A stretch of DNA of 55,841 nt. Source: a virus (lineage: Duplodnaviria; Caudoviricetes). Every line of letters begins with the position of its first letter. Within the stretch, counting starts at the first letter, position 1. Location of the stretch: positions 1 through 55,841 of the IMG/VR virus record IMGVR_UViG_3300037339_000150; one strand, given 5' to 3'. Under the pieces are notes generated by a model. That model was not told the origin of the DNA. It made no database searches and saw only the letters and a list, made by a program, of their open reading frames with translations. Positions 1,503 to 55,430 of the stretch are shown piece after piece. Both the position numbers and the translations under genes were made by a program.

Positions 1503-1796
1503 CTACCTCCCCAGACCTAGCCAATACCGAGCGTCGAGTTCGCTCGCTTGCTTGATAACGCCCGGCCGCTTGTTCCCACAACACCCGCCTCTGACAGCGA
1601 GCAGGCAGGGAACATCTGCGGGCGTCGCCCATGCCATGCTCACGTTATTCCGATAGATGAAGTCGTATTGAACCTGCTTCTTGTCGTCCCGGTTGCAGAT
1701 AACCCGGATGTGCCCAGCGTTCAGGTAGCGCATGGCGACCTGTCCTTCTGGGTTGGAAATCGTGCCGTCGGGGAGAACCGTGTAGGGATCAGGCAT
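1503..1796 (-). CDS. Small hypothetical protein (GGCCG motif)
   Basis: Start re-assigned to ATG 1796 (MPDPYTV) behind a GAGGAAG; abuts the next gene. The track's extension to 1898 covers a repeat-rich intergenic region. Confidence 0.65.
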   Translation of the reverse strand: MPDPYTVLPDGTISNPEGQVAMRYLNAGHIRVICNRDDKKQVQYDFIYRNNVSMAWATPADVPCLLAVRGGCCGNKRPGVIKQASELDARYWLGLGR

Positions 1797-1856
1797 GGCG
1801 ACTGCGGCTTCCTCGGATGATAGCCCATTTGTGCTGGTGGCGCAAGCATAGTACCG

Positions 1857-1930
1857 AAGTACCATTGTGGCCGGGTATTTGCTACCTAGCAGGACCAAAG
1901 TACCATTGTGCTAGGCCGAGAGTTTGCTAC
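1857..1930. repeat. Intergenic direct repeats AAGTACCATTGTG x2 and TTTGCTAC x2 (possible tandem promoters/operators)
   Basis: AAGTACCATTGTG at 1857 and 1898; TTTGCTAC at 1878 and 1923. Confidence 0.55.
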
Positions 1931-1937
1931 AATGAAG

Positions 1938-1966
1938 GAAGGCCGGGGATGCGCACCCCGGCCTTC
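1938..1966 (-). terminator. Probable intrinsic terminator after capsid copy 2
   Basis: GAAGGCCGGGG-N7-CCCCGGCCTTC hairpin ~50 nt after the stop; weak U-tract. Confidence 0.6.
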
Positions 1967-2014
1967 GCTTTGTCTAGCGTCGCCCGTCGCAGGCACGAGG
2001 CCCGTGGCCCATCG

Positions 2015-3214
2015 CTAGCCGATGACCGGGCAGGTTGTCACAATGCGGCCGGTGAAAAAGCCGCGATAGCGACCGTGAGCGCAACAGTGCTTCACGATAA
2101 GCGCCGTCTTGGCCCAGACCTCGAAGGCGATGGCCGTACAGCCGGGAGCCAAGTCCTTCAAGGCGAGGGGGATTTGGGTCAGCTTGTAAACCAGCTTCAC
2201 GCCGTTGTGCGTCATCCGCATCGCAAACAGGTCCGACATGAACAGGTTTGCGCCTGCCGCCGTCCGAGTGAAGTTGTTGTCGGCGACCACGCCCAAGCGG
2301 CCAACCCCAGTGTTGACGAACCCACCGAAGTTGAAGCCCGGAACAATCCGGTCCCCGGTGTTGAAGTTGACGACTTGCGAACCAGCAAAACCAAGCTGGA
2401 AGTAGGCGCTCATCATCTCCTGAACGGCCTGCGGATGACCAAAGATGGTCGTAGGCTTGGCGCAGGACTCGCTTAGGAAGCGGTCGAACGTCGCGGCGCT
2501 GAACGTACCGGAACTTGTTTCCGCCTTGTAGTGAGCGCAGGTCGTTGCCACTAGCGTCTCGAAGCCCGAGAAGGCCAGAGCGTCGGCCCCAGCGTTGCCA
2601 AGGACAAGGAGACGGTCCCACCCATTCAGAACGAGGGTCATCGCCAGCCGGACTTCTTTCTCCTTCAGGTCGGCGATGTATTCGTTCTGGAACGTGCCAA
2701 CGTTCGACCCGCCCGGCATTCCCTCGCTCGCAGGAGCGGGGCCGATGAGGCGGTTGATCCCGTGCCAGTTCGCGGCGGCGACAGCGGCGGAGTGCATGAT
2801 GTCGCTGATTCCCAAAGTCTTCTTCGCCCCGATGTTCTTCAGAGTGATGGTCGTATTGTCTCCGTCATGCTTGTATTCCTCGGGACACGCGCCATCGGCG
2901 AAGGAGATGTACGCCGACCCCGACGTGAACGCGAGTTCGTTCAACTCGCGCCAAGTGTGAGCCAGCAAGGAGGTGTTCTCCTCTGGGAGCGCACGCCAAA
3001 CCGAAATCTCCTCGCACATGGCAACGATTTCGGTCGGATCGAGCGGCTGGGGGTACTGCGCGGCGAAATCTCCCGGAGTTTCGTATGGCGGATAGAGCAC
3101 CGGCTCGTTCCGCGCTTGTTCTTCCGGGAAGTAGCGGGCGCGACTCACAAAGGGCTGTCCGCCAGCCATGTCTTTGACGACCTCGCCCGCCAAGTCGTGA
3201 AGGATTGGGGCCAT
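2015..3214 (-). CDS. Major capsid protein, copy 2 (HK97-fold, predicted)
   Basis: About 95% identical to 4667..5839 from PLDPTEI onward; own RBS (GGAGAGAGGAGAAACGACA-ATG). Confidence 0.8.
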   Translation of the reverse strand: MAPILHDLAGEVVKDMAGGQPFVSRARYFPEEQARNEPVLYPPYETPGDFAAQYPQPLDPTEIVAMCEEISVWRALPEENTSLLAHTWRELNELAFTSGSAYISFADGACPEEYKHDGDNTTITLKNIGAKKTLGISDIMHSAAVAAANWHGINRLIGPAPASEGMPGGSNVGTFQNEYIADLKEKEVRLAMTLVLNGWDRLLVLGNAGADALAFSGFETLVATTCAHYKAETSSGTFSAATFDRFLSESCAKPTTIFGHPQAVQEMMSAYFQLGFAGSQVVNFNTGDRIVPGFNFGGFVNTGVGRLGVVADNNFTRTAAGANLFMSDLFAMRMTHNGVKLVYKLTQIPLALKDLAPGCTAIAFEVWAKTALIVKHCCAHGRYRGFFTGRIVTTCPVIG

Positions 3215-3232
3215 TGTCGTTTCTCCTCTCTC

Positions 3233-4582
3233 CTAGCGCAGTTCGCGCCAGCGGATGCTCGCCGCGGAGTCCGTGGCGGCTTGCTGGGAGTCCATGCTCG
3301 TAGCGACCACGGTCAGGATGTCGGATGGAGTCCCGGTCGGATGCCCACCGCCAATGGTCAGGGCCAATGGGAGCCGGGTCATTGCATCCCGGACCATCGA
3401 GCCAATCAGCTTGCTCTGGTTCGATGTGGCCGCTGGAACGTAGGCGTCGGCAAGCACGAGTCCGCCAACGATGGCCGTGGCCTCCTTGTCTACCTCAACC
3501 GCCGAGTGAGTGGTGTCAAAGTTGGCGAAGGAACCTGAAGTGAGGACCCCGCCATAGACAACCTCGAAATAGGTCGGCTTGTCCTCGGCGTAGAATTGGT
3601 AGTCCAGCGGCACGATGACCGCGTGGTTGACTTTCGCCCCGTAGGTCAGGCGAGGCCGAATGGAAATCAGCGGGCGGCGAGTTGTGATGCTCTTTATGGT
3701 CGCCCCGTTCCCGGCAGTGAAGGACGGCCCAGCCTCTTCCTCTTGCCCGCCCTCGCTCATCACGGAACAGCAGATTTGCTTGAGGGTGAACGTGCCGGTC
3801 AGGGTTGGGCCGCTCTCGATTTCGTAGCGGATGGGCAGGTTGGCCGTCGCCATGTAGACGTACTCGGCCTCGTTCGATGCGTTGAAGGTATGAACGATGT
3901 AGGGCTTGCCGTCAATGACAAACCCGACGCGCACACGCCCGACCCCCAACCACTCAAGGTCAATCATCACAATCTGGACCTTGGTAACATCCAGCGTTAC
4001 GAGGGTTGGCAGGTATCCCTTGAGTGGGTCCTGCCAGTCGTTCTGTACGACCCGCTCCTCCCGCACCAGTCCGTCCAGCGAGGTATAGCGCCGGACGAAG
4101 GCCGGAACCCCGCCATCGACCTCGAAGAAGATGCCGTTCTGGGGGTCGAAGTATCCGACCCGCTGGGCAACATCAACCGGCCAGTGAAGCAGGCCCGTGT
4201 CGTCCATCAGGAAGGTAGCAAGGATGAGTTGCGACTTCCCCGGCTGGTAGCGATGGTACTGCTTTGTCTGCCGGGCGTACATGGCGTTGCCTTGAGACAC
4301 ACTCAGGAGAACGGCAGGCTCGTTGGTCGAGTATGCGGCCTGAGCCGTTCCCGTGGAGTAGTCGTTCCACTGCAACACCTTCTCGGTGTATTCCAGCGTG
4401 CTGTCGAAAAGATTGACTGGTGACGAAACGCGCAGGCGACCAAACGCATCTGCCGAAGCCGAGTCCACATCAAACGCCATCGAAACCGAGCCGGTGACGC
4501 CGATGTAGTTTCCGGCCCCAAGTCTCACGGTCGGGACAACGATGCCATCAAACCAATCATCAAGTCCTTCTAGGGGGTTCAT
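3233..4582 (-). CDS. Phage virion structural protein (beta-rich, DAFGRLRVS family)
   Basis: DAFGRLRVSSP..LFD, YQPGKSQ, RVGYFD..NGIFFE, EWLGVGRVRVGF, YMATANLPIRYEI pattern recalled from a widespread phage protein family; lies between the capsid genes. Confidence 0.65.
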   Translation of the reverse strand: MNPLEGLDDWFDGIVVPTVRLGAGNYIGVTGSVSMAFDVDSASADAFGRLRVSSPVNLFDSTLEYTEKVLQWNDYSTGTAQAAYSTNEPAVLLSVSQGNAMYARQTKQYHRYQPGKSQLILATFLMDDTGLLHWPVDVAQRVGYFDPQNGIFFEVDGGVPAFVRRYTSLDGLVREERVVQNDWQDPLKGYLPTLVTLDVTKVQIVMIDLEWLGVGRVRVGFVIDGKPYIVHTFNASNEAEYVYMATANLPIRYEIESGPTLTGTFTLKQICCSVMSEGGQEEEAGPSFTAGNGATIKSITTRRPLISIRPRLTYGAKVNHAVIVPLDYQFYAEDKPTYFEVVYGGVLTSGSFANFDTTHSAVEVDKEATAIVGGLVLADAYVPAATSNQSKLIGSMVRDAMTRLPLALTIGGGHPTGTPSDILTVVATSMDSQQAATDSAASIRWRELR

Positions 4583-4605
4583 TGAAAATCCCTCCGCAGT
4601 TAGAA

Positions 4606-4637
4606 GGGGCCGGTCGGTACGCTACCCGACCGGCCCC
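4606..4637 (-). terminator. Intrinsic terminator after capsid copy 1
   Basis: Perfect 12-bp stem GGGGCCGGTCGG-N8-CCGACCGGCCCC followed by TTCT on the minus strand, 30 nt after the stop. Confidence 0.7.
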
Positions 4638-4666
4638 GGCCTATCGCTTCTCGTGTCCGGTTCGGT

Positions 4667-5839
4667 TTACCCGATGACCGGGCAGGTGGTCACGATGCGT
4701 CCCGTGAAGAAGCCGCGGTAGCGGCCGTGGGCGCAACAGTGCTTGACGATGAGCGCCGTCTTGGCCCACACCTCGAATGCGATGGCCGTACAGCCGGGCA
4801 CCAAGTCCTTCAGAGCGAGCGGGATTTGGGTCAGCTTGTAGACCAGCGGCACCCCATTGTGGGTCATGCGGAGCGCGAACAGGTCGGACATGAACAGGTT
4901 TGCACCTGCCGCCGTCCGGGTGAAGTTGTTGTCAGCAACCACGCCCAAGCGGCCAACGCCGGTGTTGACGAACCCACCGAAGTTGAAGCCCGGCACAATC
5001 CGGTCTCCCGTGTTGAAGTTCACAACCTGCGAGCCTGCGAACCCCAACTGGAAGTACGCGCTCATCATTTCCTGAATGGCCTGCGGGTGGCCGAAGATGG
5101 TCGTCGGCTTGGCGCAGGATTCGCTCAGGAAACGGTCGAACGTCGCGGCGCTGAACGTGCCGGACGCGGTTTCGGCCTTGTAGTGGGCGCAGGTCGTCGC
5201 CACCAAGGTCTCGATGCCGGAGAAAGCCAGCGCGTCGGTCCCGGCATTGCCGAGGACGAGCAAGCGATCCCACCCGTTCATCACGAGCGTCATCGCCAGC
5301 CGGATTTCCTTCTCCTTCAGGTCGGCAACGTACTCTTGCTGGAACGTGCCTTCGTTCGCCCCACCGGGAAGACCCTCGCTTGCAGGGGCAGGACCGATGA
5401 GCCGATTGATGCCGTGCCAGTTCGCGGCGGCAACCGCGGCCGAGTGCATGATGTCCGAGATACCAAGCGTCTTCTTCGCTCCGATGTTCTTGAGCGTGAT
5501 GGTCGTGTTATCGCCATCGTGCTTGTATTCCTCGGGGCACGCACCATCGGCGAACGAGATGTACGCCGAGCCTGAGGTGAACGCGAGTTCATTCAACTCG
5601 CGCCATGTGTGCGCCTGCAAGGAGGTCGTCTCCTCGGGAAGCGCCTGCCAAACCGAAATCTCCTCGCACATGGCGATGATTTCGGTCGGGTCGAGCGGGG
5701 TCGGATACTGCGCGGCGAAGTCGCCCGGCGTCGAGTACGTCGGCGAAATCACCGGGTCGGAAGCACGGCTTACGAAGGGCGCTCCGCCCGCCATATCCTT
5801 GACGACCTCGCCCGCCAAGTCGGGAACGATGCGGTCCAT
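4667..5839 (-). CDS. Major capsid protein, copy 1 (HK97-fold, predicted)
   Basis: 390 aa, directly downstream of the protease/scaffold, strong RBS, terminator after it; HK97-like pattern ISFADG...TLKNIG...NGWDRLLVLGN...FSGI. Confidence 0.85.
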   Translation of the reverse strand: MDRIVPDLAGEVVKDMAGGAPFVSRASDPVISPTYSTPGDFAAQYPTPLDPTEIIAMCEEISVWQALPEETTSLQAHTWRELNELAFTSGSAYISFADGACPEEYKHDGDNTTITLKNIGAKKTLGISDIMHSAAVAAANWHGINRLIGPAPASEGLPGGANEGTFQQEYVADLKEKEIRLAMTLVMNGWDRLLVLGNAGTDALAFSGIETLVATTCAHYKAETASGTFSAATFDRFLSESCAKPTTIFGHPQAIQEMMSAYFQLGFAGSQVVNFNTGDRIVPGFNFGGFVNTGVGRLGVVADNNFTRTAAGANLFMSDLFALRMTHNGVPLVYKLTQIPLALKDLVPGCTAIAFEVWAKTALIVKHCCAHGRYRGFFTGRIVTTCPVIG

Positions 5840-5918
5840 TGTCGTCTCTCCTAGATCAAGTATGTTGAGTGTTGGCCGGATACGTCGGTCGCTTCACGCG
5901 GCAGAGCCGCACGCAACC

Positions 5919-7895
5919 TTACTCGTCCGACAGGCCAACCGACCGTCGGGCGATACTGCGAAGCCGACTTCCGCCCTTCTCGGGCTGACTTCGGACGACC
6001 ACACCGGGCGTTGGAGCACCCACCGAACTCCGCACGATGGCCCGGAGAGCACGCCGCTCTGGGATCAGAGAGGCTTGACGCTTCATCGGGGTCACGGGCG
6101 GAGCGGCGCGTGACGCCAACTCCGTGCGGAACGAGGCCATTTCCTGCACGAGCGGTGCGACTGCCGCACGCACAATCTCGGCCAACGCGTCTTCGTCCGA
6201 CGTTTCTTCATCCGCCGGGGCCTTGCCCTTCATCGGGGGCTTGGCTCCCTTGGCGGGGGCTTCCTTGGGTGGTACCTGCTCCTCGGCCGGAGGAACCTGC
6301 TCTGCCTGCACTTCCTCGCCTCCGCCCTCGACGTTCTCCATGATGGCGTCCGCCAGAGCGTTGAGCGCAGGCTGGATCATCTGAAGGCGGGTGGTCCGGT
6401 CTCCGCCGGAGGCCACTGCCTCATCGAAAGCGGCCTTGAGGGAAGCGTAGGCTTCGTCCAAGATGTGCGACTCGCCTTCCGGCGCTTCCTCTGGCACAAC
6501 TTCCTCTTCGACTTCCTCTTCCATCTGGTCTTCGGTTTCCTCGGCCGGTGTTTCTTCTCCGGCGGCAGGCTTCTGCTTGGCGAACGGGTTGGGCTTCTTG
6601 GCCTTGGCCGGAGCCTCTTCCTCATCGCCGAAGGCTCGCCCACGCAGGGCTTCCTTCACGGCGACCAGAGCATCCACGGCCAACGAATCAAGCCGGGATT
6701 GGTAATCCGCCACGGCCTTCTCGACCATCCCTGCCTTGCCCGGATCGCCGACAAGGTTCTTCAGGATGCCAACCAGCACTCCCTGAGCGTCCACGAAGGA
6801 CTCGCTCACGGAACGAGTCAGGAAGGCTTCTGCCTCATCCATGTTCTCTGCTCCGCCAAACGAAGGTTCTCCGCCATCAGCCTCGGCCTTGTCGTCGGCA
6901 TCTTCCTCGGTGGTGATCGGAGGGGCGACCTCGCGAATGACAATCGCCGAGGCGTCCATCGCGGGGGCCGATTTCTGGGTCAGGGTCTTGCTTCGGCGTT
7001 CCAGTTCGTCGGCCAGTTCATCGCCGACGACAGAAGCCGCGTCATCGCGTCGTGCGCTCATGGACCTTTCCTCCAAGGCAATAGTAGTTTCGACGTAAGC
7101 GGGCCTCCGTGTCAAGGCCAAATGCACCAATTGACCAGACCTGTAGACCTTCTCGCCTGCGCCGGAATCGCAGTGCGGACACCTGTCCAGCAGACTCTTT
7201 CGGGTGAAAGTGCCCGCTCCTTCGTGGTCGTGTCCCCAGTCCACGAAGGCGATTGAAACTCGAACTCGCTGATCGGTCGGCCGATTCAGCCGGATGTCTT
7301 CCTGAACAGCCTTGAATGCGGCATCGGCCAACGGGCCGTCCGTGAACGTCCCGCGGGCCTTGAAAATGTCGGCGTCAACCCACACGCGGTCGGTTTGGCC
7401 CACGATGGCCTCGCCTTCCATGTCGAGGTAGTGCGCCACGCCCAAGTAGGGAAGCCCGCCCTTCCACGCCCGGCTCGCGAACGGCTCCGGGGCCTTCTCC
7501 TTGGCCTCGATACGCTTGATGAAGTCCTTGAACAGCGGAACGCTCATCTTCTCGTTGTAGAGGTCCCGCTTGGTCCCCGAGGCCGTCGAGTACCAGCGCC
7601 GGACGCCGGTCTGGGGATCACGGCTCACCCGATTGATAAACAGGGACAACTCGGCGGTGCTTCGTCCAATGCTCCCCATCGCTCCTGCTTGCATCGCTGA
7701 CATGCTCCCGTTGGCTGGATGTGGCCGGTACAGGCGGCAGATGTCGTCTGCACTCGGCGAGACGGCTACGGTGACGCACGATCCGTTCTGGTAGGCGATG
7801 CAGTCCCCGCAACGATGCGAAGGCATCCCCATGCCGAGGCGGAAATAGGCTTCCTTGGGTTCGATGCGAACTTCGGTGTCAGCCATTAGGGTCAC
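5919..7895 (-). CDS. Prohead protease-scaffold fusion with N-terminal Cys-rich domain
   Basis: HK97/assemblin-like motifs STASGTKRDLYNEKM, VAHY (His), RVSIAF (Ser), LVHLALTRRPAY; acidic helical C-half typical of scaffolds; immediately upstream of the capsid gene. Start may be 7886. Confidence 0.8.
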   Translation of the reverse strand: MTLMADTEVRIEPKEAYFRLGMGMPSHRCGDCIAYQNGSCVTVAVSPSADDICRLYRPHPANGSMSAMQAGAMGSIGRSTAELSLFINRVSRDPQTGVRRWYSTASGTKRDLYNEKMSVPLFKDFIKRIEAKEKAPEPFASRAWKGGLPYLGVAHYLDMEGEAIVGQTDRVWVDADIFKARGTFTDGPLADAAFKAVQEDIRLNRPTDQRVRVSIAFVDWGHDHEGAGTFTRKSLLDRCPHCDSGAGEKVYRSGQLVHLALTRRPAYVETTIALEERSMSARRDDAASVVGDELADELERRSKTLTQKSAPAMDASAIVIREVAPPITTEEDADDKAEADGGEPSFGGAENMDEAEAFLTRSVSESFVDAQGVLVGILKNLVGDPGKAGMVEKAVADYQSRLDSLAVDALVAVKEALRGRAFGDEEEAPAKAKKPNPFAKQKPAAGEETPAEETEDQMEEEVEEEVVPEEAPEGESHILDEAYASLKAAFDEAVASGGDRTTRLQMIQPALNALADAIMENVEGGGEEVQAEQVPPAEEQVPPKEAPAKGAKPPMKGKAPADEETSDEDALAEIVRAAVAPLVQEMASFRTELASRAAPPVTPMKRQASLIPERRALRAIVRSSVGAPTPGVVVRSQPEKGGSRLRSIARRSVGLSDE

Positions 7896-7897
7896 GC

Positions 7898-9985: not shown

Positions 9986-10027
9986 GGCAAACTCCACCTT
10001 CTGCGGGCTTTCTACTCCCTAGAATAA

Positions 10028-10059
10028 GCATTTGTCCTTCCGTTGGGAAGGACAAATGC
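10028..10059. promoter_or_regulatory. Perfect 14-bp inverted repeat (operator or RNA hairpin) upstream of the ChaB-protease-capsid genes
   Basis: GCATTTGTCCTTCC-GTTG-GGAAGGACAAATGC, with TTGACA on the minus strand at 10064..10069. Confidence 0.6.
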
Positions 10060-10095
10060 ACCATGTCAACTATTCCGTTTTCGGCGGATTTGGGG

Positions 10096-12083: not shown

Positions 12084-12086
12084 GCT

Positions 12087-47382: not shown

Positions 47383-47588
47383 CCTTTGGCCTGCTCCAAG
47401 ACCGCCATGAGCATCCCCTGAAGCAGTCCGCTCAGATAGACGAAGAAGATGCCCGCCACCACGCCGAGGGCCTGCGAGAAACCGAGGCCCATCTTGTCGA
47501 GGGCCAGCATGATGATGCCCATGCCCAACAGGAGGAACCCGAGGATAGTCGCCTTGGCAATCCACAGGTCGCGCTTCTCTTTGCTCAT
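47379..47588 (-). CDS. Small membrane protein
   Basis: Two hydrophobic helices; coupled. Confidence 0.6.
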   Translation of the reverse strand: MSKEKRDLWIAKATILGFLLLGMGIIMLALDKMGLGFSQALGVVAGIFFVYLSGLLQGMLMAVLEQAKG

Positions 47589-48001: not shown

Positions 48002-48123
48002 CGTCTTCCCCCGTCTCCTCCAACATCCCGCCCACGAACCGGGCGAGCCAAACGATAACGCCGAGCACCACGATGATGACCGACGACCCTATGGCAAGAA
48101 TGGTAAAGGTAAGCGAGTCGCTA

Positions 48124-48561
48124 CTATAGTGCATGACCCAAGGCCTCCATCGTTTCCTTCACCTTCTTATCCTTGAACCCACAGAACATGCAGTCGTCGT
48201 TGTGTCCGACCCCAACGATGTATCTCATGCCAGCGTCGAGCCTCTTGATAACGACGGCCGGAGGCAGGCCGGTATCCGCGTAGCGGACAGTCACTTCGAT
48301 GGGGCGGTTCCCGTGGTCCGGGCGCGGCATCATCGTAAACGTCACGAAGTTCTTGGCGTCCATGCCTTCGAGCAGGGCGATGCACCGGGAGGAGAAATCA
48401 GCAATCGCGGCGAAGGATGCTTGGACCTCAAACGTGGGCTTCCCCTCGCGCTCGGAGAGCTTGACCGACTCGATGCGCACGTCTTCCAGCCGGGTCATGT
48501 TGGCTCGCATCCGCCAGTCGATGTAGGCCCCGGCCGCTTTGTCTATCCACCCGAGCATCAC
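48124..48561 (-). CDS. Hypothetical protein
   Basis: Coupled ORF on the coding strand. Confidence 0.65.
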   Translation of the reverse strand: MMLGWIDKAAGAYIDWRMRANMTRLEDVRIESVKLSEREGKPTFEVQASFAAIADFSSRCIALLEGMDAKNFVTFTMMPRPDHGNRPIEVTVRYADTGLPPAVVIKRLDAGMRYIVGVGHNDDCMFCGFKDKKVKETMEALGHAL

Positions 48562-48920
48562 CGATCCTCCCCGCTACCCTTGAGCGTGCCCCGGTCGGCC
48601 CGGTCAGCCAACTTCGCTAGGTTGTCGTTGGCGATGCCGCTCAGAGAGACGCCGAGCACGTTCGCCGCCTCCGCCAGATACCAGAGTTGGTCGCCTATCT
48701 CCCCAATCAGCCAAGCCCGCACGTCGAACGGCAGGCTCTCGGGCTTGGAAATGTCGGCCCCCTCGAAGTCGCCCCGGATCACCTTCTTGACGTATCCCTG
48801 AAACTCTCCGGCCTCACTCCCCATGCCCAAGGCCAGATACACCAGCGCCGCGTCCTTCGGGTAGACGGCGGTCTCCGCCGTGCGATCTTGATACTCGTCG
48901 AGGGTCAAAGGCTCAGTCAT
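48558..48920 (-). CDS. mazG: MazG-like nucleoside triphosphate pyrophosphohydrolase
   Basis: EYQ..TAVYP...SEAGE...KK...EIGDQLWY...NLAKL.DR..RGTLKGSG. Confidence 0.88.
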   Translation of the reverse strand: MTEPLTLDEYQDRTAETAVYPKDAALVYLALGMGSEAGEFQGYVKKVIRGDFEGADISKPESLPFDVRAWLIGEIGDQLWYLAEAANVLGVSLSGIANDNLAKLADRADRGTLKGSGEDR

Positions 48921-48981
48921 CTTGGAAATCTCTCCCTACAGACAACCGCAGTTTACTCCGGTTCGGTGATCGGCGCAAGGG

Positions 48982-49203
48982 TTAGCGCCGGGTCCAGCGC
49001 CACAGGTTGCGCGCATGGATGACGCTGTAGGCGATCACGCCCGGCAGGAAGCCCCATTGCCGGGTCCCGACCGTGTAGGCCAGCCACAGGACTTGCCCCA
49101 CCAGCCCCACAGCAGGCCCCCAGCGGCTCTTGTTGCCCATCAGCCAGAGCATCAGGCAGGAGACCGCCGACAGGACCCAAGGGAACCACTCAGCGTGTGT
49201 CAT
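48982..49203 (-). CDS. Small membrane protein (PnuC-like)
   Basis: WLMGNK.RWG..VGL..Q.LW..Y pattern, three TM segments. Confidence 0.6.
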   Translation of the reverse strand: MTHAEWFPWVLSAVSCLMLWLMGNKSRWGPAVGLVGQVLWLAYTVGTRQWGFLPGVIAYSVIHARNLWRWTRR

Positions 49204-49208
49204 GGCGG

Positions 49209-49520
49209 CTAGTCGCAGTCAATCGCTACGAAGGCCCCATCACAGGACATGCAATCGTTCTGGACCATGATGCACGCATCAGGGAGATAACCGGGGCGCG
49301 TCACGAGCAACTGATAGACTGTGGCTCTCCCAACTCTGTCGGCAGAGAGCACCACGGTCCCGGCCCCCTTCTCAATCGCCACGGGCGCGGCGGCGGGCGG
49401 CGAGTCCATTTGCGTTTCCGTTGCGGACGAGACCGGGGCGCAGGATGCGATACCCGCCAGAATGAGAACCAGCACAAGCCCCGTGTAGACAACCACCAGC
49501 CAACGCCAATTCGGTTTCAT
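49209..49520 (-). CDS. Putative lipoprotein
   Basis: MKPNWRW + hydrophobic stretch + IASC lipobox-like; start re-assigned to 49520. Confidence 0.6.
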   Translation of the reverse strand: MKPNWRWLVVVYTGLVLVLILAGIASCAPVSSATETQMDSPPAAAPVAIEKGAGTVVLSADRVGRATVYQLLVTRPGYLPDACIMVQNDCMSCDGAFVAIDCD

Positions 49521-49521
49521 A

Positions 49522-50127
49522 TCAGCCTCCCTGTTGGGCAAAATCCTTCCAGTCAACCCAGTCAATCTGCGTCGGCGGTCGTCTGATCGTCGGGCAGTAA
49601 TCCCAGACGAACCACGCGAACGCAATCATGGACGACGACTTGTTGCCCTCCCACCCGACGCGGTGCATCCGAGGCAGACGCCGAGAGAAGACATGAACTC
49701 GTGTCGGTGGATGGACTTGAAAAAGGCCTCCACGCAGTCCTTCGAGAAAAGCCAATCGCAGAAGCAGGCACGCCTTACCGCCGGTCTGTGCAATGTGGCC
49801 GATGCTTGTCAGCACGAACTTGTTTGCGATGCGATAGGGGGGATTGGTCACGATGTCGATGAACCGAGATGGAGGCGGATGCCGCAGGAAGTCCGTGCCC
49901 GTCACGATGTCCGACTCCACGACCTCGATGCCTCGGGAGCGCAGGACCTTGGAAATCGCACCGTCGCCAGCCGCAGGCTCCCAGCAAGGGGACGCCAACT
50001 TCTCGCAGGCGCACAGGGCTTCGGTTGCCACGGGAGGCGTCTCGTAGAAGTCTCGGGAATCTCGCCCGTTGTCTGTGGTAGCGCCGACTGAGCGCCCCGC
50101 CCACTTCGCGTCCCTGCTCTTGGTCAC
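49522..50127 (-). CDS. DNA N6-adenine methyltransferase
   Basis: DFYETP...WEPAAGDG...IVTNPPY...LLRLAFLEG. Confidence 0.85.
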   Translation of the reverse strand: MTKSRDAKWAGRSVGATTDNGRDSRDFYETPPVATEALCACEKLASPCWEPAAGDGAISKVLRSRGIEVVESDIVTGTDFLRHPPPSRFIDIVTNPPYRIANKFVLTSIGHIAQTGGKACLLLRLAFLEGLRGGLFQVHPPTRVHVFSRRLPRMHRVGWEGNKSSSMIAFAWFVWDYCPTIRRPPTQIDWVDWKDFAQQGG

Positions 50128-51344
50128 GCGAGTTGCCCCCCGAACAGCGGCAGGTCATCGAGGCGTCCGACCGGCGTCCGCTTGAGCACGCGCACCGCCG
50201 CCTCTTCCCGGAGGTACTGGCGACTGATGTCCAGCCCGGCCCAGTCCACGCCCAACTCCTCAGCCGCCAGCGCAGTGCTCCCTGACCCGATGAACGGATC
50301 GAGCACCCGCCCGGCGACCGGCTCCCGTGGGTCGTCGCACGAGCACGACGGCCGGTAGCGGGCAGTTGTGTAGGACTGTGACCATCCCATGCCGCAGGCC
50401 GGGCAGGCATGGCGCGGGACAGTGGAGGCGATCAGGGGCACGACCAGCGACGGGGGGTACGTTGCGAAGTGCTCGCCCTTGTAGTTCGAGCGGGCCGGGC
50501 GCAGAATGTCACGGGGATTGGCGTCGGTCTGCATGACCATCTTGGCGGCGGCGCGGTCGGCCCAGTAGCCCATGCCCTTCGTGAGCATGAAAATCTGCTC
50601 GTAGGAGCGGGTATGCCGCCACGATCCTTGCCGCAGGCGCTCAGGGCCTTCTCCGCCGCTTCCCTTGCATTTGGGGCACTTGGGGTCCGGCCCGATGTCC
50701 CCGGCCTTCCTGTAGACCCTGTGGCGCTCCACGCCTTGCTCTGCCATCTGCTCCCGGATGCTGGCTTCCCTCCGCTCAGTGGTGCAGGTGCAGGAGTCCG
50801 GTTGCCAGCGCCAGCCGTCGATAGGCTCGGGCATCACGCTGTCCTTGACCCAGAGCGGCACGCCGCGCAGGGTCCAGCCATCAGCCTGCAAGGCAAAGGC
50901 CAAGCGCCAAGGGATGCCGATAGCGTCGCCGGGCTTGAGACCTTCGAGATGATGTCCGGGGTACTTCGGCTGGCCTTCCTTCAGCCCGCCCTCGTTGTAG
51001 TCCCCGCCAGCCCCGCCCGATCCGTTGTAGCTGTCTGCGATGTTCAGCCAGAGCACGCCGTCTTCCCGCAGGACCCGCTTGACCTCGCGGCAGACAAGGA
51101 GCATGTGCCAAACGTAGTCCTCGACGAAGGTCTCGGAGCCAAGCGCCCGGCGCATCTCAGGGACCCGCGCTTCGTGGAAGGTGTTGCCTGCCATGATGCG
51201 GTAGTAGCCTCCGGGCCAAAGGATGTCCTGCTCCCCGTGATACGCGCGGAGGCCGAAGTAAGGAGGCGAGAAGACAACCGAATGGAAATGCTTGTCGGGG
51301 AAGGGCATCTGGTGTGCAGTGCCCTGAGCCATGATGCCTGTCAT
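50124..51344 (-). CDS. DNA N4-cytosine/N6-adenine methyltransferase (beta class)
   Basis: SPPYFG...RVLREDG.LWLNIAD...HFATYP...VLDPFIGSGST. Confidence 0.9.
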   Translation of the reverse strand: MTGIMAQGTAHQMPFPDKHFHSVVFSPPYFGLRAYHGEQDILWPGGYYRIMAGNTFHEARVPEMRRALGSETFVEDYVWHMLLVCREVKRVLREDGVLWLNIADSYNGSGGAGGDYNEGGLKEGQPKYPGHHLEGLKPGDAIGIPWRLAFALQADGWTLRGVPLWVKDSVMPEPIDGWRWQPDSCTCTTERREASIREQMAEQGVERHRVYRKAGDIGPDPKCPKCKGSGGEGPERLRQGSWRHTRSYEQIFMLTKGMGYWADRAAAKMVMQTDANPRDILRPARSNYKGEHFATYPPSLVVPLIASTVPRHACPACGMGWSQSYTTARYRPSCSCDDPREPVAGRVLDPFIGSGSTALAAEELGVDWAGLDISRQYLREEAAVRVLKRTPVGRLDDLPLFGGQLA

Positions 51345-51943
51345 CCGTCATCCTTCGGCTTGTTGCCCATCGCCCGTGCGCTCATGCGCCCGGCCAGCGG
51401 ACCGATGAAGTCCAAGTCCTTCTGCATCCGGCGGATGGTGCGGCGCTGGTCAGTGATCCGTCGGTGATTGCGCCGCGCCCAGTATGCGGCGTTAGTATAC
51501 CGCGCTTGCCACTTGCGCGCAACCTTCCGGGACTTCCCGATGAGCCGGAGCGCCCGCCTGTAGTTCTGCTCCAAGGCCAGAACGTTGCGCAGGGGGTCCG
51601 ACTCATGCTTCAAGGGGCTGACTTCCCGGCACAACTCGGAGAGCACGGCGTAGGCTTCGAGCGGGTCGTCCGTCGGGTACAGCATCCCCCACTTGTCGGG
51701 CATCCACTCGTACAACGTCTTGAGCAGGGCAATGGAAATCGTCCGGGCCGTGTCCAGCCGGAACTCGATGCCCGGCTCGGTCTGCGGATTGGCCGTATTC
51801 ACTCGGCCATCTGGCTCGCGCAGGATCGGGGCGAGGCTGACGTGAACCTCTCCTCCCTCCTGCCAACTCGCGATACGCCACCAGCCGAACCCGTCCGGCT
51901 CACTTGGCGCTTCGACCTTGAGAATGGCAATCCGCTCATCCAT
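51341..51943 (-). CDS. Hypothetical protein
   Basis: Coupled ORF. Confidence 0.6.
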   Translation of the reverse strand: MDERIAILKVEAPSEPDGFGWWRIASWQEGGEVHVSLAPILREPDGRVNTANPQTEPGIEFRLDTARTISIALLKTLYEWMPDKWGMLYPTDDPLEAYAVLSELCREVSPLKHESDPLRNVLALEQNYRRALRLIGKSRKVARKWQARYTNAAYWARRNHRRITDQRRTIRRMQKDLDFIGPLAGRMSARAMGNKPKDDG

Positions 51944-52481
51944 TGTTGCCTCGCAGGAACGCCCACATCGACCGGCGCTTTGGCCTCGGGAAGAAGCTGT
52001 CCACGTCCTCTCCGATCAGCGTGTACCGCGATGCGTCTTTGACTGTCCCGTTTTCCGGGGCGAATGCCGACTCGCTCAGGAAGTCGCGGGTCTTGGCGAA
52101 GGCCACGGCCTCATCCCGGTCGAGGGTCAGGCGCTTCTCCATCGTTGCCGCCCGCACGACATGGTACATCGCCCGGAGCAGGGCCTCGGCGCTGTCGGGA
52201 TCGCCGATGATGCGGTCAGTCAAGAAGGTCTGCCTCTTGCGCTTATCTTCCCGTATCCATGCTTCGAGATTCGCTTGCTCCTTTTCCTTCGTGGCCTTGG
52301 CTCGCACAGCCATCTCCCGCCACTTGTTGTAGTCGTCCCGCGTGCGCTCAGTTTCCAGATACCACTTGGCGCGTGTCTCGTCGTTCAACTGGCGAGCGAT
52401 GGCAACGACATCCGCCCGCGTCCGCTCAAGCCGCTGGTCTGCTTCCTGCCTCGTTTCCGGCACTCTGAATCCGGGTGGCAT
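51936..52481 (-). CDS. Hypothetical coiled-coil protein
   Basis: Coupled ORF. Confidence 0.6.
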   Translation of the reverse strand: MPPGFRVPETRQEADQRLERTRADVVAIARQLNDETRAKWYLETERTRDDYNKWREMAVRAKATKEKEQANLEAWIREDKRKRQTFLTDRIIGDPDSAEALLRAMYHVVRAATMEKRLTLDRDEAVAFAKTRDFLSESAFAPENGTVKDASRYTLIGEDVDSFFPRPKRRSMWAFLRGNNG

Positions 52482-52656
52482 CAGTGTCCTCCATGAAGAT
52501 GTTGTCGCAGTCGCATATACCTGCCTGCGCTCGTGTCTGAAAGCCGAAAGCGATCCCGCCAGTCGGCTTACCGCACTGCTCGCACAGGTGTTCGCGCATC
52601 TCGGCGTCCAAGGCCTTCAGGCCGTCGAGCACGCCGAAGAACTTGCTTTCGTCCAT
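52426..52656 (-). CDS. Small Cys-containing hypothetical protein
   Basis: MDESKFF...CEQCGKP...CDC with AAGGAG RBS; the 3' end overlaps the next gene. Confidence 0.45.
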   Translation of the reverse strand: MDESKFFGVLDGLKALDAEMREHLCEQCGKPTGGIAFGFQTRAQAGICDCDNIFMEDTDATRIQSAGNEAGSRPAA

Positions 52657-53519
52657 CGGTACTCCTTTCTTGCCGTCCATGCTAGGGCGGCGAATGGAAT
52701 TAGTGCGAAGGGCAGGAAGGACCCGACAGCGTGCGACAGGCCAAGCGCCACCCAACTCACCGGAACCAGCAACCAATCCGGGCCGCAGTCCATCAGGAAC
52801 ACGGTGTCGTAGTAGCTGAACATCGGAGCGCCAAGCGCCATAGCCGCTTTGCTCAGGGGATAGCTGGTCGTCAGCAAGCCGAGCAGGCCGAGCGCCGCAC
52901 CCATGCAGGCCAGCGCCCATGTCGGCAGAGCCGTTGCATTCCAGACGCCCGCCCCCGGCCACTTGTAGGCGGTCGCCGCGCTGGACACCGCAAGGTATTC
53001 CGAGTAGACCGTTGGCCGCACAACCAGCGGGAGGATCAGGAGGGCAATGGAAATCAGCGTGGCCTTCACCAGTATCCAGCGTCCCTCGCTCGTCAGCATC
53101 CAGCGCACCACGAAGAAGGGGAGCGCCACGATTGCCAACTGGGGCTTGAGGGTGAACAGCGCCACAGCCACCGCGGCTCGCCATCCGCCCTTCCACAGCA
53201 GAGGGATGAGCAGGACGAAGAACAGCGAGACTTGCCCGCTGGCGATGACATGGAACACGGGGACGAAGAACAGCCAGAGAAGAGCACTGCGCCCCTTGAG
53301 GGCTACCAGCGCCATCACGTTCAGCCCGGTCACGGTCCACAGGACCACGCCCCACGGGAGCAGGGCAAGCACAGCGAACAGAAGGACCATTGCCGGAGGA
53401 TAGGCGGCTCCGGGCAGGGCATAGGGGTTCTGCCCGGCGAGGAGCGCCAGACCACAGCGGTACATGATGTCCAAGTCGAACCCCGGCCCCGTGATGGGAG
53501 GGAGGTCAGACCAGTTCAT
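52617..53519 (-). CDS. Membrane glycosyltransferase, GT87/DUF2029-like
   Basis: DL..MY...G.NPY...YPP...GQ...LKPQ...YD, multiple TM helices. Confidence 0.8.
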   Translation of the reverse strand: MNWSDLPPITGPGFDLDIMYRCGLALLAGQNPYALPGAAYPPAMVLLFAVLALLPWGVVLWTVTGLNVMALVALKGRSALLWLFFVPVFHVIASGQVSLFFVLLIPLLWKGGWRAAVAVALFTLKPQLAIVALPFFVVRWMLTSEGRWILVKATLISIALLILPLVVRPTVYSEYLAVSSAATAYKWPGAGVWNATALPTWALACMGAALGLLGLLTTSYPLSKAAMALGAPMFSYYDTVFLMDCGPDWLLVPVSWVALGLSHAVGSFLPFALIPFAALAWTARKEYRWTKASSSACSTA

Positions 53520-53574
53520 CAGTCATCCCTCCCGGCTGGCCCCAAGTGGAAGGTGGTGTTGGCGGCGGGCATTC

Positions 53575-53763
53575 TCAGGCCTCCTCTTCCAGCTTGTCGA
53601 GAAGGCGCATGAGGCCGGTCTTGGCGCTGGCCGCGAGGTATTTTTCGCCGTGGTCAAGTCGAGCGCCGCCGTCCGCCGAGTTCTCCCAAGCCTCAAGTTT
53701 GATAATGACGGCTTCGAGCCTGCGGATCGCGGAGCGCGTGGGGGGCTTGCACTTATCAGTCAT
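53575..53763 (-). CDS. Small hypothetical protein
   Basis: AAAGGA RBS, coding strand. Confidence 0.5.
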   Translation of the reverse strand: MTDKCKPPTRSAIRRLEAVIIKLEAWENSADGGARLDHGEKYLAASAKTGLMRLLDKLEEEA

Positions 53764-53846
53764 TTCGCCGGTCCTTTCTGCATGTGTCTTGCGCTTACAT
53801 TCTCCACCCGGCCTCCTCCGGGCGCAATAGGACTTCGGTACTATGC

Positions 53847-54302
53847 CTACTTGGTCTTGCGCTTCGCCTTTACCCCGTTGTCTATCAGTTGTCCGCTCAA
53901 GACCGTCGCTCGTGTCGGCTTGCTGTGGAACTTCCGGGTCAGGTCAATCAGCGACCGCACGAACTCAGGCCCGTGGCCGAGCCGCTTGGTCAGGAAATGT
54001 GCAAGCTCGTGAAGGAGGTCCTCTTCCGCAACGCCGATGATGATGCCGGTCTTCGGATCGAGGGGGACCACGATCTTCCGCCTTCTGCGGTCAACGTAGA
54101 CCTCTTGTTCGCTGGTAGACCTTGGCGTGTACGAGTCGAGCGTCATGTGCCAGTAGCCCGCGGGAACGCGGGAGCGCCACCAGCGAGAACGAGTGACGCG
54201 CTCGACGAAGGCCGACATCCCGGCCAGCGTCCAGAAAACCTGCCCCGGCGGGCAGGCGTCCTCAGCGTCGAACACTCTCTGTCTTTGGAAATCCCTTGCC
54301 AT
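53847..54302 (-). CDS. HExxH metallohydrolase (SprT-like)
   Basis: RDFQRQRVFDAE...LLHELAH...HGPEF. Confidence 0.8.
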   Translation of the reverse strand: MARDFQRQRVFDAEDACPPGQVFWTLAGMSAFVERVTRSRWWRSRVPAGYWHMTLDSYTPRSTSEQEVYVDRRRRKIVVPLDPKTGIIIGVAEEDLLHELAHFLTKRLGHGPEFVRSLIDLTRKFHSKPTRATVLSGQLIDNGVKAKRKTK

Positions 54303-54314
54303 ACCATCACCGCG

Positions 54315-55133
54315 TCACTGGTCGCTGTAGTTTTCCCGCATCCCCTTCATGGCGATGCGCTTCATCCGCTCGCTCATTTCTCCCATCGGCTCCTCCGAGG
54401 CGACCTGCTCCGGGCCGAACGGAAGCTCGCATGTCGGGTCATAGCAGTCGTTCCATCGCTGGCGGATAGGGTGCCATTGGTGATAGACCGCGTAGGGTAG
54501 GGTGACAATCTCCCGTCCGGCGTCCACCTCGACCTGCCGCAACCAGCATTCGTCGCTCCCTACTCCTTCGTTGGCGGGGAATGCCAGCTTGTCGAATCGC
54601 TCCCATCCGCTACGCGTGTTGCTGGTGAATAGGATGTGGGCCTTCCACGCGGGCGACTCGCTATTCACCCCCTTGAAGGTGTTGGGCCAGCCGGAGAAGC
54701 CCACATTGTCGTGGAAGATGCCGCACTCGGTCCCCTTCCAGTCCACTTGGTCGATCTTCGCTGATGTCTCCCGGTTCAGGCAATAGACAGTGGCGGTACA
54801 CCGCTGGTCGCCTATCTGTGTGAGGAGCATGTCTTCGAGGGCGCGGGACGTGAAGATGAGGTCGCAGGAGCAGATAACAATGTAGTCGTGTTCGACGAGA
54901 GGCCACGCTTGGCGGACCGCCGTATTGATTGTGCGCCAGAGGGGGTTTCCCTCGCGGGACTCAATCAGTTGCTCGCCCGGTAGAAGCTCTAGGTCGCCGT
55001 TGCCGCCGTCGTTGATGACAATGAGTTGATCGGGCTTCCGAGTCTGCCTGCGCCAAGCGTCGAGGCATCGGACAACGTTCGCCCGATGGTAAAAGGCCGG
55101 GATGAGGACTGTCACCTTGCCGTTGTAGGGCAT
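54315..55133 (-). CDS. Glycosyltransferase family 2
   Basis: VTVLIPA...RQT...LIVINDGG...CD...GSDE...VYHQWH. Confidence 0.82.
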   Translation of the reverse strand: MPYNGKVTVLIPAFYHRANVVRCLDAWRRQTRKPDQLIVINDGGNGDLELLPGEQLIESREGNPLWRTINTAVRQAWPLVEHDYIVICSCDLIFTSRALEDMLLTQIGDQRCTATVYCLNRETSAKIDQVDWKGTECGIFHDNVGFSGWPNTFKGVNSESPAWKAHILFTSNTRSGWERFDKLAFPANEGVGSDECWLRQVEVDAGREIVTLPYAVYHQWHPIRQRWNDCYDPTCELPFGPEQVASEEPMGEMSERMKRIAMKGMRENYSDQ

Positions 55134-55142
55134 AGGCTCAGT

Positions 55143-55430
55143 CTATCCGCTGGCCGGGGGTTCCGCAAGCCCTTCTGCACCATGCGCAGGCCCCACAGGG
55201 CACCAATCCGGGGTAGTCGCTTCGGGCCAGATAGGGGATGGATGGCGGGGGCCAAGGGGATCGGCGTCCGGGTGGTGGCACAGGTACTCCCTGCCCCCGC
55301 AGAGGTGCAGGCGCTCGATGAAGTCCAGATGGCGGCAGAACAGGCAGGTAGCCTTGCCTTGGAAATAGGAGTGGCCGTTGTTCCCCGGCCTCTCCCGGAA
55401 GGTAGCCAGAACGCCTCTTTCGCTTCTCAT
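55143..55430 (-). CDS. Small Cys-rich hypothetical protein
   Basis: CLFCRH...CHHP...TPDWCP. Confidence 0.5.
   Translation of the reverse strand: MRSERGVLATFRERPGNNGHSYFQGKATCLFCRHLDFIERLHLCGGREYLCHHPDADPLGPRHPSPIWPEATTPDWCPVGPAHGAEGLAEPPASG

Follow-up and report, generated by a model that had tools for sequence, protein, structure and literature searches.

The linear virus record IMGVR_UViG_3300037339_000150 of IMG/VR (55,841 bp, Caudoviricetes), analysed here over its whole length as the window and also called G000 (about 50% complete by CheckV), carries the 8-mer TGGAAATC 36 times on its + strand and once on its - strand. On the other strand this word reads GATTTCCAW, a sequence that forms the local core of a degenerate DNA motif, 5'-(G)ATT-N-Y-CA-W-3'. 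We conclude with considerable confidence that a small clade of uncultured tailed phages keeps this motif at about 1-1.6 copies per kb on one genome strand, and that selection acts on the DNA itself, on the number and direction of the sites and not on protein, messenger RNA (mRNA) or particular positions. The motif would serve as a distributed cis-signal for an enzyme that tracks along or cuts one strand in a genome-wide, one-directional DNA transaction, with strand-specific nicking as the mechanism that we tentatively prefer.

A one-stranded motif selected as DNA

The long open reading frames (ORFs) of the window all lie on the - strand, with a coding fraction of 97%, and on this coding strand the word is spelt GATTTCCA, followed by A in 19 and by T in 15 of the 36 copies. 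A preliminary description of the same DNA had reported strong over-representation and strand polarity of TGGAAATC, and both stand. Dinucleotide-preserving shuffles give 1.64±1.18 copies on both strands together (maximum 5, n=100), an order-3 Markov model expects 1.31, and the strand ratio of 36:1 is far from the equality that had been named as grounds for doubt. The word ranks first by count among the 8-mers of the contig, although it is AT-rich, and read backwards it occurs on neither strand of the window. Every one of the 36 + strand positions given in that description was recovered (its coordinates lie 1 base 5' since they include the preceding W), as were its roughly seven TGGAAAT(G/A) copies (five TGGAAATG and two TGGAAATA on +), its several further variants (TTGGAAAA, seven on +) and its two or so reverse-oriented copies, namely the sole exact one at 30089-30096 and a variant at 29268 (ATTTCCAA on +). 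Among its count claims only the GC content of about 63% was slightly off, the measured value being about 62% (0.60-0.64 per 4-kb bin).

Called on a hand-curated list of - strand genes, the copies read as DF[HQ] (20), IS[NKI] (10) and [RG]FP (4), and two are intergenic (43752 and 48923), which bears out the earlier report of use in three frames and outside genes. Synonymous shuffling within genes, which preserves each protein and each gene's codon usage, yields 9.63±1.92 copies (maximum 17, n=300) and whole-codon shuffling 3.76±0.88, against 36 observed; the enrichment persists under the codon-preserving shuffle that had been proposed as its test. DFH is spelt GATTTCCA- in 16 of 17 instances, DFQ in 4 of 4, and ISx is spelt ATTTCCA- in 12 of 14, in a window where GAT makes up only 29% of Asp codons. 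Given these shuffles and this biased spelling, the enrichment is not a by-product of protein or codon usage, and the word has raised the frequency of DFH/DFQ/ISx-type tripeptides.

It is accordingly hard to believe that the copies merely reflect a repeated peptide, codon usage or recent duplication and have no function at the DNA level. Some 11-15 of the 36 do encode DFH after a linker peptide repeated in paralogous polyvalent proteins, a neighbourhood that the preliminary description had missed, but the other 21 or more lie in other frames or in non-coding DNA, and protein-preserving shuffles leave the enrichment standing in four genomes. Within the linker repeats, the codons beside the word vary synonymously (GGA/GGC/GGG, TCA/AGC/AGT/TCG, CAA/CAG) while GAT-TTC-CA stays constant. 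The inter-domain linker, (F/H)GH(E/A)GRPG..GGS.P, occurs 19 times in polyvalent-protein genes of the window (8942..36881, - strand; its 11-residue core was matched by the regular expression G[RIK].[GKERQ]..GG[ST].P), and 11 of these linkers have the word within the next 30 nt, as DFH(S/E/G)A, encoded GATTTCCA. After the same conserved linker, the related genome G005 has GLS in 6 of 9 copies, encoded gGATT[A/G]TCAa, so that the motif is there read in another frame and as another peptide. Two further relatives, G006 and G009, have the motif after 0 of 2 and 0 of 12 linkers. A peptide layer is present, then, and it is secondary to the DNA motif.

The 8-mer that had been taken for the signal is real, but it is merely the core of the degenerate motif, which the preliminary description had not seen. 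Several variants are likewise enriched on one strand of the window (GATTACCA 8 vs 0, GATTGTCA 11 vs 0, GATTATCA 5 vs 0 and GATTTTCA 5 vs 1), and motif-bearing forms include GATTTCCAT and GATTATCAA. By strand, GATTDYCA counts 70 vs 6 (18.5±3.3 under synonymous shuffling), GATTDYCAW 61 vs 4 and ATTNYCAW 78 vs 6. T is preferred after the W (62%); beyond that T, no conserved flank, promoter partner or hairpin was found around the sites. Other readings of the word were set aside: a palindrome GATT-N3-AATC would require AATC after the word, which only some 8-10 copies have, -35/-10 promoter hexamers on the complementary strand have no partner element conserved in the flanks, and IHF and DnaA boxes do not fit all variants.

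Relatives and the strand of the motif

Megablast of window positions 1-25000 against cultured phages returned no cultured relative, and terminase tblastn reached at most 38% identity; terminase homologues in metagenomes reach 86-89%, many of them on contigs of 100-118 kb. A single-protein terminase search of IMG/VR found no relative, and a profile built from 23 terminases retrieved 80 IMG/VR loci. Contig sizes and CheckV estimates put the genomes of the clade at roughly 100-120 kb, and its members encode a terminase and a fused portal-MuF protein, together with arrays of "polyvalent" effectors that are injected.

Whole-record strand counts of GATTDYCAW are 96 vs 1 in G005 (96,396 bp, GC 0.62, 79% complete), 27 vs 2 in G006 (52 kb, GC 0.52), 3 vs 11 in G009 (29 kb, GC 0.49), 15 vs 16 in G007 and 7 vs 7 in G008. 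The leading forms in G005 are ATTATCA (49 vs 0), ATTGTCA (36 vs 2), ATTTTCA (24 vs 0) and ATTCTCA (21 vs 0). Against synonymous shuffles, ATTNYCAW is in excess in G005 (151 observed, 56.4±4.3 expected; 4 and 10.0±2.4 on the other strand), in G006 (62 and 28.8±3.8), on the - strand of G009 (49 and 28.0±3.9) and on the main gene strand of G007 (94 and 60.8±5.4), and it shows no excess in G008 (45 and 43.7; 62 and 62.2). A strand bias with p<1e-3 was seen in only 3 of 105 related loci (L013, L016 and L060), with L021 and L022 close behind.

G000 and G005 are syntenic from a small-terminase-like gene (42639-43463 in the window) through the capsid genes. Their aligned orthologous regions (about 40-80% protein identity) hold 13 sites in each genome, 2 of them co-located, and the capsid gene, the most conserved (78-81% identity), is free of sites in both. 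Positions change between the genomes at a maintained density, which implies that sites are placed wherever the coding sequence permits. Sites on the one strand are 0.6-0.9 kb apart. In G000 they are distributed more regularly than expected at random (coefficient of variation (CV) 0.67, P=0.0002; the largest gap, 2178 nt, has P=0.007); such evenness was not found in G005 (CV 0.91) or G006 (CV 0.95). Comparisons of close strains are powerless here: fixed motif positions show 0 of 110 mismatches between G005 and L060 (99.5% identical, background 0.5%) and 2 of 75 between G006 and L022 (98.6% identical, background 1.4%), and among the 40 listed of 1,074 population differences none falls in a strict site.

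Searching IMG/VR with a DNA pattern of linker plus word gave 11 loci with a single match each, none with the linker peptide. In four of five records of such loci, TGGAAATC counts 6/1, 0/4, 0/2 and 2/2 by strand and ATTNYCAW 6/16, 13/9, 12/8 and 5/8; we treated these unrelated viral contigs, with at most mild strand bias, as chance matches. The idea of a private polar word in each relative was also dropped, as the candidate in G009, AAGCGAGC, belongs to a 36-bp tandem array at the contig end, and G007 and G008 have no dispersed polar word. The array (G009, locus L097, 1-470 and 1384-1600) has some 16 units, in which AAGCGAGCCA and AAGAAAMCCA are conserved, lies upstream of the terminase genes and may represent a pac-type array or a set of iterons. 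In G006, positions 3381-3515 hold 11-bp arrays. G000, G005 and G006 have no tandem array or iteron in common that would give a direction.

Because all genes of the window point one way, the window alone cannot decide whether the motif follows transcription or the genome strand, a check that the preliminary description had called for. G005 provides it. A codon model trained on G000 places 18 - strand genes at 10.3-21.0 kb and four more at 3.7-6.9 kb; Pfam matches its - strand ORFs to RlaP (9.6e-23), GIY-YIG with NUMOD3 and GerE/LuxR (2.3e-8), and 0 of 9 overlapping + ORFs in the block has a Pfam match. ATTNYCAW stays on the + strand throughout, with 14 vs 0 copies in the - strand genes (11,550 bp, 1.2 per kb) and 110 vs 3 in the + strand genes (66,480 bp, 1.65 per kb), and with another 27 + strand copies outside called genes (total 151 vs 4). 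The genes of G009 are nearly all on + (27.8 kb vs 0.45 kb) and its motif is enriched on -. In a terminase tree, L012-L015, whose motif lies opposite to the terminase and to nearly all genes, form one clade (95/96 support), and G000, L016, L017 and L018 (GC 0.62, motif on the terminase strand) form another (80/86); an outgroup clade of nine loci, including two Anaerolineae prophages, shows no strand bias. The strand of the motif is therefore a heritable property of the genome that is independent of transcription. GC skew at four-fold sites in G005 switches with gene orientation, so there is no replication-type asymmetry by which to name the leading strand.

These data make a transcription or RNA element, whether an mRNA motif, a site of pausing or antitermination or a repressor site of the stoperator kind, very improbable. 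In the window the word does lie on the sense strand of every gene, its two intergenic copies are near gene starts, and G005 encodes a Cro/C1-type HTH protein, but the - strand genes of G005 keep the motif on +, the motif of G009 is enriched antisense to nearly all genes, and the sites have neither conserved flank nor promoter partner nor hairpin. Stoperators of Cluster A mycobacteriophages are likewise many short asymmetric sites spread across a phage genome, also inside genes, but their orientation follows the direction of transcription, which is not the case here, either in the - strand block of G005 or in the antisense sister clade. Of the analogies offered in the preliminary description, those to stoperators and to an mRNA element are thus contradicted by the G005 block and by the clade of L012-L015 and G009. 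Its proposal of a polarised site under selection as nucleic acid has held up, on the strength of the synonymous shuffle, the codon spelling, the G005 block and the exchange of DFH for GLS at the linker.

Gene content and coordinates

Along the direction of transcription the window holds small early genes, the terminase, portal-MuF, the polyvalent array and the structural and capsid genes. The early region encodes DNA methyltransferases (PF05869 Dam, 46520-47047; PF01555, 50124-51344) and a GT2 glycosyltransferase; the large terminase lies at 40945-42639, and the portal and head-morphogenesis (MuF-like) PHROGs fall on a single 912-aa ORF. The structural end encodes a virion structural protein and a further GT2 and has a pair of paralogous capsid-like genes. 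The capsid-like paralogues (4667-5839 and 2015-3214), 79% and 76% identical to a single G005 gene (81224-82462), flank the virion structural gene at 3233-4582; it is unusual for a major capsid gene to be duplicated. The window's Pfam/PHROGs matches include no family of primases, helicases or polymerases, the window showed neither an immunity repressor nor an integration module, and Pfam finds no Cro/C1-type HTH there. TTAA and GAATTC are absent from the 55.8 kb, which holds 30 AATT, 27 ATAT and 24 TATA, and their absence looks like restriction-site avoidance. By the gene list, the short tandem repeat GCTGTACGCTGG (x3.8, 47708-47754) lies inside gene 47585-48001, and TTCCCCGGAT (x3.9, 55435-55473) largely inside gene 55427-55732.

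A second dispersed polar word, GGCGCTGG, occurs on the coding strand of the window (27 vs 7; 6.6±2.5 under synonymous shuffling) in all three frames, its 27 sites running from 542 to 55681, and gives no signal in G005 (10 vs 11). It is G-rich, resembles known Chi sequences in composition and may be a host-specific signal.

The polyvalent array spans about 27 kb and encodes very large proteins with Pfam matches to Zeta_toxin (9.6e-27), ADPrib_exo_Tox (1.2e-19) and GNAT (1.9e-5), to ChaB (3.6e-11) together with DUF2958 (5.6e-15) in one protein, to a weak 2H-phosphoesterase domain and, under the curated cut-off, to LPD1 (1.1e-4). ChaB had been named in the preliminary description, whose AP2-like and wHTH proteins find no Pfam support at E<=0.01. 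As large multidomain effectors beside a portal/MuF packaging module, these proteins agree with the polyvalent proteins of phages, a family described by Iyer et al. (2017; PMC5512222). The word "linker" does not appear in its main text, where the same peptide could stand under another name. The linker peptide is common to the relatives (9 copies in G005, 12 in G009, 2 in G006) and may be a processing site or a module junction. Contigs of other strains join different linker sites (14062>15172, 29140>14047, 26216>32466, 26220>20727 and 20768>29157), which suggests that effector modules are shuffled at linkers, with the proviso that the sides of the joints are short and assembly artefacts possible.

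Proteins of G005 were scanned with Pfam/PHROGs (20 queries covering 12 distinct ORFs, plus 59 more ORFs; the best 25 of 26 families). They include a single-stranded DNA-binding protein (SSB, E=1.2e-26), a Rad52/22-family protein (E=8.9e-7), a 5'-nucleotidase, the Cro/C1-type HTH protein, two PF01555 methyltransferases, homing endonucleases and a large sugar-modification cluster. Primase, helicase and polymerase are not among the matches listed for this 79% complete genome, in which many ORFs have no family. The sugar cluster (21241-28029 and early ORFs) has a GDP-mannose dehydratase with a LAGLIDADG intein, a DegT aminotransferase, epimerases, four tandem GT2 paralogues, GT1/GT4 enzymes and a pyruvyl transferase; inteins are also present in several related terminases (PF14528 matches). 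G005 has a tRNA-Ile(GAU) gene at 47715-47799 (L094 7715-7799), and 61 of 92 ATTNTCA copies in its + strand genes use the rare ATT Ile codon in frame; a phage tRNA reading AUU might offset the cost of that codon.

Table 1. Motif copies and linker cores in the window. Rows are copies of GATTTCCA unless stated otherwise; "after linker" means directly after the linker peptide.
Position	Strand	Reading or element	Gene or context
1754..1761	-	ISN (frame 2)	1503-1898
3661..3668	-	ISI (frame 2)	virion structural gene 3233-4582; extended context GATTTCCATTCGGC, out of frame with DFHSA
8781..8788	-	DFH	ChaB/DUF2958 gene 7898-9997
11959..11966	-	DFH after linker	10371-12083
14048..14055	-	DFH after linker	13027-14223
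15160..15167	-	DFH after linker	14220-17417
15561..15568	-	GFP (frame 1)	14220-17417
17041..17048	-	DFH after linker	14220-17417
18028..18035	-	ISK (frame 2)	Zeta-toxin-domain gene 17414-20833
19537..19544	-	ISI (frame 2)	17414-20833
20682..20689	-	DFH after linker	17414-20833
21020..21027	-	DFH	ADP-ribosyltransferase-domain gene 20833-21606
21419..21426	-	DFH after linker	20833-21606
25457..25464	-	ISN (frame 2)	25050-28457
26128..26135	-	DFQ	25050-28457
26878..26885	-	DFH after linker	25050-28457
28183..28190	-	DFH after linker	25050-28457
28437..28444	-	DFQ	near end of 28385-30532, overlapping start of 25050-28457
29157..29164	-	DFH after linker	28385-30532
30089..30096	+	sole opposite-orientation copy (GATTTCCA on +)	
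30402..30409	-	DFH after linker	28385-30532
31171..31178	-	DFH	GNAT-domain gene 30525-33911
31907..31914	-	ISN (frame 2)	30525-33911
33870..33877	-	RFP (frame 1)	30525-33911
34131..34138	-	ISN (frame 2)	33904-36069
34749..34756	-	ISN (frame 2)	33904-36069
35603..35610	-	DFH	33904-36069
36838..36845	-	DFH(G) after linker	36066-37487
43752..43759	-		intergenic by hand-curated gene list
44619..44626	-	RFP	codons 2-4 of 43818-44630
45123..45130	-	GFP	45030-45440
46514..46521	-	DFQ	45718-46557
48923..48930	-		intergenic, between GGGAGA Shine-Dalgarno-like run and ATG of 48558-48920 (flank read directly)
49950..49957	-	ISK	49522-50127
51733..51740	-	ISI	51341-51943
53048..53055	-	DFH	52426-53355
54286..54293	-	DFQ	codons 4-6 of 53847-54302
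within 1107..51932	-	27 more GATTDYCAW, other centre: GATTACCAA x8, GATTATCAA x5, GATTGTCAW x5, GATTGCCAW x5, GATTTTCAW x4	9-mer starts: 1107, 4582, 6699, 6937, 11724, 13787, 14272, 16654, 17401, 17667, 18343, 19323, 21557, 22888, 23682, 24275, 25168, 32902, 33031, 38498, 41537, 42296, 45526, 45784, 47554, 50587, 51924
within 7360..55366	-	17 more ATTNYCAW without preceding G, or with C at N	8-mer starts: 7360, 9015, 11193, 30769, 32065, 37171, 37554, 39496, 40297, 41699, 43471, 48745, 51282, 51918, 53699, 55015, 55359
8942..36881	-	19 linker cores	8942-8974, 11970-12002, 14059-14091, 15171-15203, 17052-17084, 19979-20011, 20693-20725, 21430-21462, 22770-22802, 26187-26219, 26889-26921, 28194-28226, 29168-29200, 30413-30445, 31527-31559, 32436-32468, 33168-33200, 35911-35943, 36849-36881

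Possible readers of the motif

The sites are perhaps best read, by analogy, as recognition sites of a lineage-specific, strand-specific nicking activity of the T5, phiKMV and tf type, a tentative preference among several readings. The 14 nicks of phage tf have the consensus 5'-TACT/RTGMC-3' and all lie on the top strand despite convergent transcription units, relatives of tf have the consensus on one strand only, with similar positions in the LUZ24 group, and T5 and the phiKMV group have nick consensus sequences of their own (PMC3517423). The nick sites of tf/LUZ24, phiKMV and T5 and our motif are alike in being a degenerate asymmetric word of about 9 nt, far above chance and on one strand regardless of transcription (36 vs 1 and 151 vs 4 here), and the main variant of tf-type sites shifts between related phages, as it does in this clade. 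Strand-specific nicks would fall at motif copies, localised as in those phages; their 3'-OH ends could prime strand-displacement synthesis, and the nicks could feed annealing-based recombination. Such a nick-primed scheme suits a phage that, going by the matches listed for the 79% complete G005, combines an SSB with a Rad52-family annealing protein and lacks a recognisable primase, helicase or polymerase. That the motif is common to phages of 49-62% GC, whereas GGCGCTGG is private to G000, also fits a reader intrinsic to the lineage.

Several points weigh against nicking. The 14 sequencing runs with window DNA are assembled contigs, which cannot show the ends of molecules, and profiling against the motif-poor relatives G007 and G008 tied no nuclease gene to the motif. 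At 61-78 sites in 56 kb and 151 in 96 kb, the motif is about 4-5 times as dense as the tf sites (14 in 46 kb), the densest case that we found described, and its sequence bears no likeness to the consensus of any of those nick sites. Related phages of the tf type have their nicks at similar positions, whereas here 2 of 13 sites are co-located, a turnover more like that of Chi than of the tf group, although the divergence between G000 and G005 in this comparison (about 40-80% protein identity) is much greater than that within the LUZ24 group. The function of the nicks is unknown even in T5 (PMC3517423), and their role in replication is our own suggestion. Finally, a primase or polymerase may lie in the missing 21% of G005 or among its ORFs without family.

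A broader proposal, which we consider rather doubtful, is a dense "direction code" on one strand, at about 1-1.6 sites per kb abundant enough to remodel codons and even peptides, read by an undescribed enzyme encoded by the lineage, either a nickase replacing primase-dependent initiation or a self-recognising packaging or ejection motor. Nick-primed strand displacement would then be followed by SSB/Rad52-type annealing, and sites beside the polyvalent linker would be hotspots for the shuffling of effector modules. We rank nicking above a Chi-like signal, followed by priming, packaging, an RNA-level element and an artefact, and leave the remainder to explanations not listed here.

Terminases at 37-42% identity occur in metagenome-assembled genomes of Chloroflexota, mostly Anaerolineae (L102-L113), and some of these contigs are 0.46-2.1 Mb long, so the wider terminase family includes Chloroflexota prophages. 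Chloroflexota is likewise the source of one Atlas neighbour cluster of window ORF 43818-44630, and the phylum can be taken as a lead to the host. The 14 runs with window DNA are sediment, freshwater-sediment or unspecified metagenomes. Five Chloroflexota genomes with prophages of the wider terminase family, distant host candidates that belong to the outgroup clade, contain 132-531 copies of the motif per strand in 4.3-7.9 Mb, or about 0.03-0.07 per kb, with no difference between the strands; composition would lead one to expect roughly this level. A word determined by the host should change with the host, as GGCGCTGG, private to G000, does; the AT-rich motif, common to phages of 49-62% GC, lends mild support to a lineage-intrinsic reader. 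Gene-presence profiling against G007 and G008 returned only the GT2 paralogues, the Zeta-toxin module and G000 gene 43818-44630, and Atlas and PDB sequence searches with the protein of the latter were uninformative.

The foremost alternative, itself unlikely, is a Chi-like signal at which a RecBCD/AddAB-type helicase-nuclease of host or phage would switch from degradation to recombination, its orientation protecting the exposed end of rolling-circle or packaged DNA. A centre position that tolerates any base, as in the motif, is not known from most Chi sequences. There is a close published precedent in co-oriented phage Chi sites: phage LLS has 23 Chi, 20 of them in the active orientation (1 per 1.86 kb), the Pseudomonas phage MD8 has 32 vs 0, and in LLS-type phages, which are without a Rec module, Chi sites "come and go" (PMC12315714). 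The motif resembles these sites, which occur about once per 1.5-2 kb, in forming tens of co-oriented words whose number and orientation are selected while positions turn over; it keeps a single orientation across the 56 kb of the window and the 96 kb of G005, both linear fragments, and is independent of transcription. Joints between linker sites in contigs of other strains adjoin motif copies, which is weak evidence given their short sides and an identity setting of 85%. In LLS and MD8 the word is the known Chi of the host, whereas here the distant Chloroflexota candidates for the host are not enriched in the motif. The Chi-rich lambdoid phages lack recombination genes and the LLS sites cluster at one end, whereas G005 has a Rad52/22-family protein and SSB and our sites are spread evenly and consist of an AT-rich word with a free centre. 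The motif is, moreover, common to phages of 49-62% GC with probably different hosts, and the second word of G000, GGCGCTGG, is the more Chi-like of the two.

We consider lagging-strand priming improbable. In this case a primase or primase-polymerase with a long site would start Okazaki fragments during one-directional replication of one template strand. Sites 0.6-0.9 kb apart on a single strand, and in G000 spaced more regularly than by chance, would suit it, as would transcription-independent sites with positional turnover and a preferred variant that drifts between phages, as expected under co-evolution with a phage enzyme. Against it, the spacing in G005 and G006 is no more even than random, no primase, helicase or polymerase family is among the matches listed for G005 or the window, and primases are generally known for trinucleotide sites. 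No origin was found by which the lagging strand could be named. A limited literature search gave no 8-9-nt primase site enriched on one strand of a phage genome.

Packaging or self-recognition ranks lower still among the DNA-level readings. A distributed signal, pac-like or in the sense of KOPS, would be read by the terminase small subunit or another motor, which would distinguish phage from host DNA and keep all motors moving in one direction. Only direction-reading processes account for a strand bias of 97-99% that ignores transcription, the density in the phages is about 16 or more times that in the candidate host genomes, and few core proteins are as weakly conserved as the small-terminase-like one (27-38% identity), whose specificity could therefore drift. 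KOPS (GGGNAGGG) is, like the motif, an 8-mer with a free centre base, and KOPS, SRS and AIMS are polar 8-mers with a tolerated centre base whose orientation and density, rather than position, are selected. They are read by an FtsK/SpoIIIE translocase and switch orientation at the origin and at dif, whereas the motif keeps its orientation over the 96,396 bp of G005, and no FtsK/SpoIIIE/HerA-family protein is among the listed Pfam/PHROG matches of that genome. In L012-L015 the motif is flipped relative to the terminase-portal module, which is awkward if the direction of packaging is tied to that module, and we know of no precedent for dispersed packaging signals in a tailed phage. DNA uptake sequences of Neisseria and Haemophilus also reach about 1 copy per kb, are forced into coding DNA at permissive places and shape local peptides, but they are not known to show strand polarity, against 97-99% here.

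Taken across these systems, the motif shares the one-strand rule and the independence from transcription with both nick sites and Chi, turnover with Chi and drift with nick sites, and is denser than either. We found no description of this motif, or of a polar word at a density of at least 1 copy per kb in a phage, in open-access papers and preprints. Strand-polar distributed words are rare, and each known class has led to a machine that tracks along DNA, namely RecBCD with Chi, FtsK with KOPS and, with the nick consensus sequences, nickases that are still unexplained. Few phage cases have been described, and this one is unusually strong (151 vs 4 over 96 kb) and uncoupled from transcription. 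It dictates the amino acids that follow the same linker, DFH in one phage and GLS in another. The motif can serve as a bait for finding its reader and as a marker of genome strand and orientation in assembly and binning, and raw virome reads would be predicted to show strand-specific ends or signals of base modification. If the sites are nicked, these would be by far the most heavily nicked phage genomes known, and they could suggest what the nicks of such phages are for.

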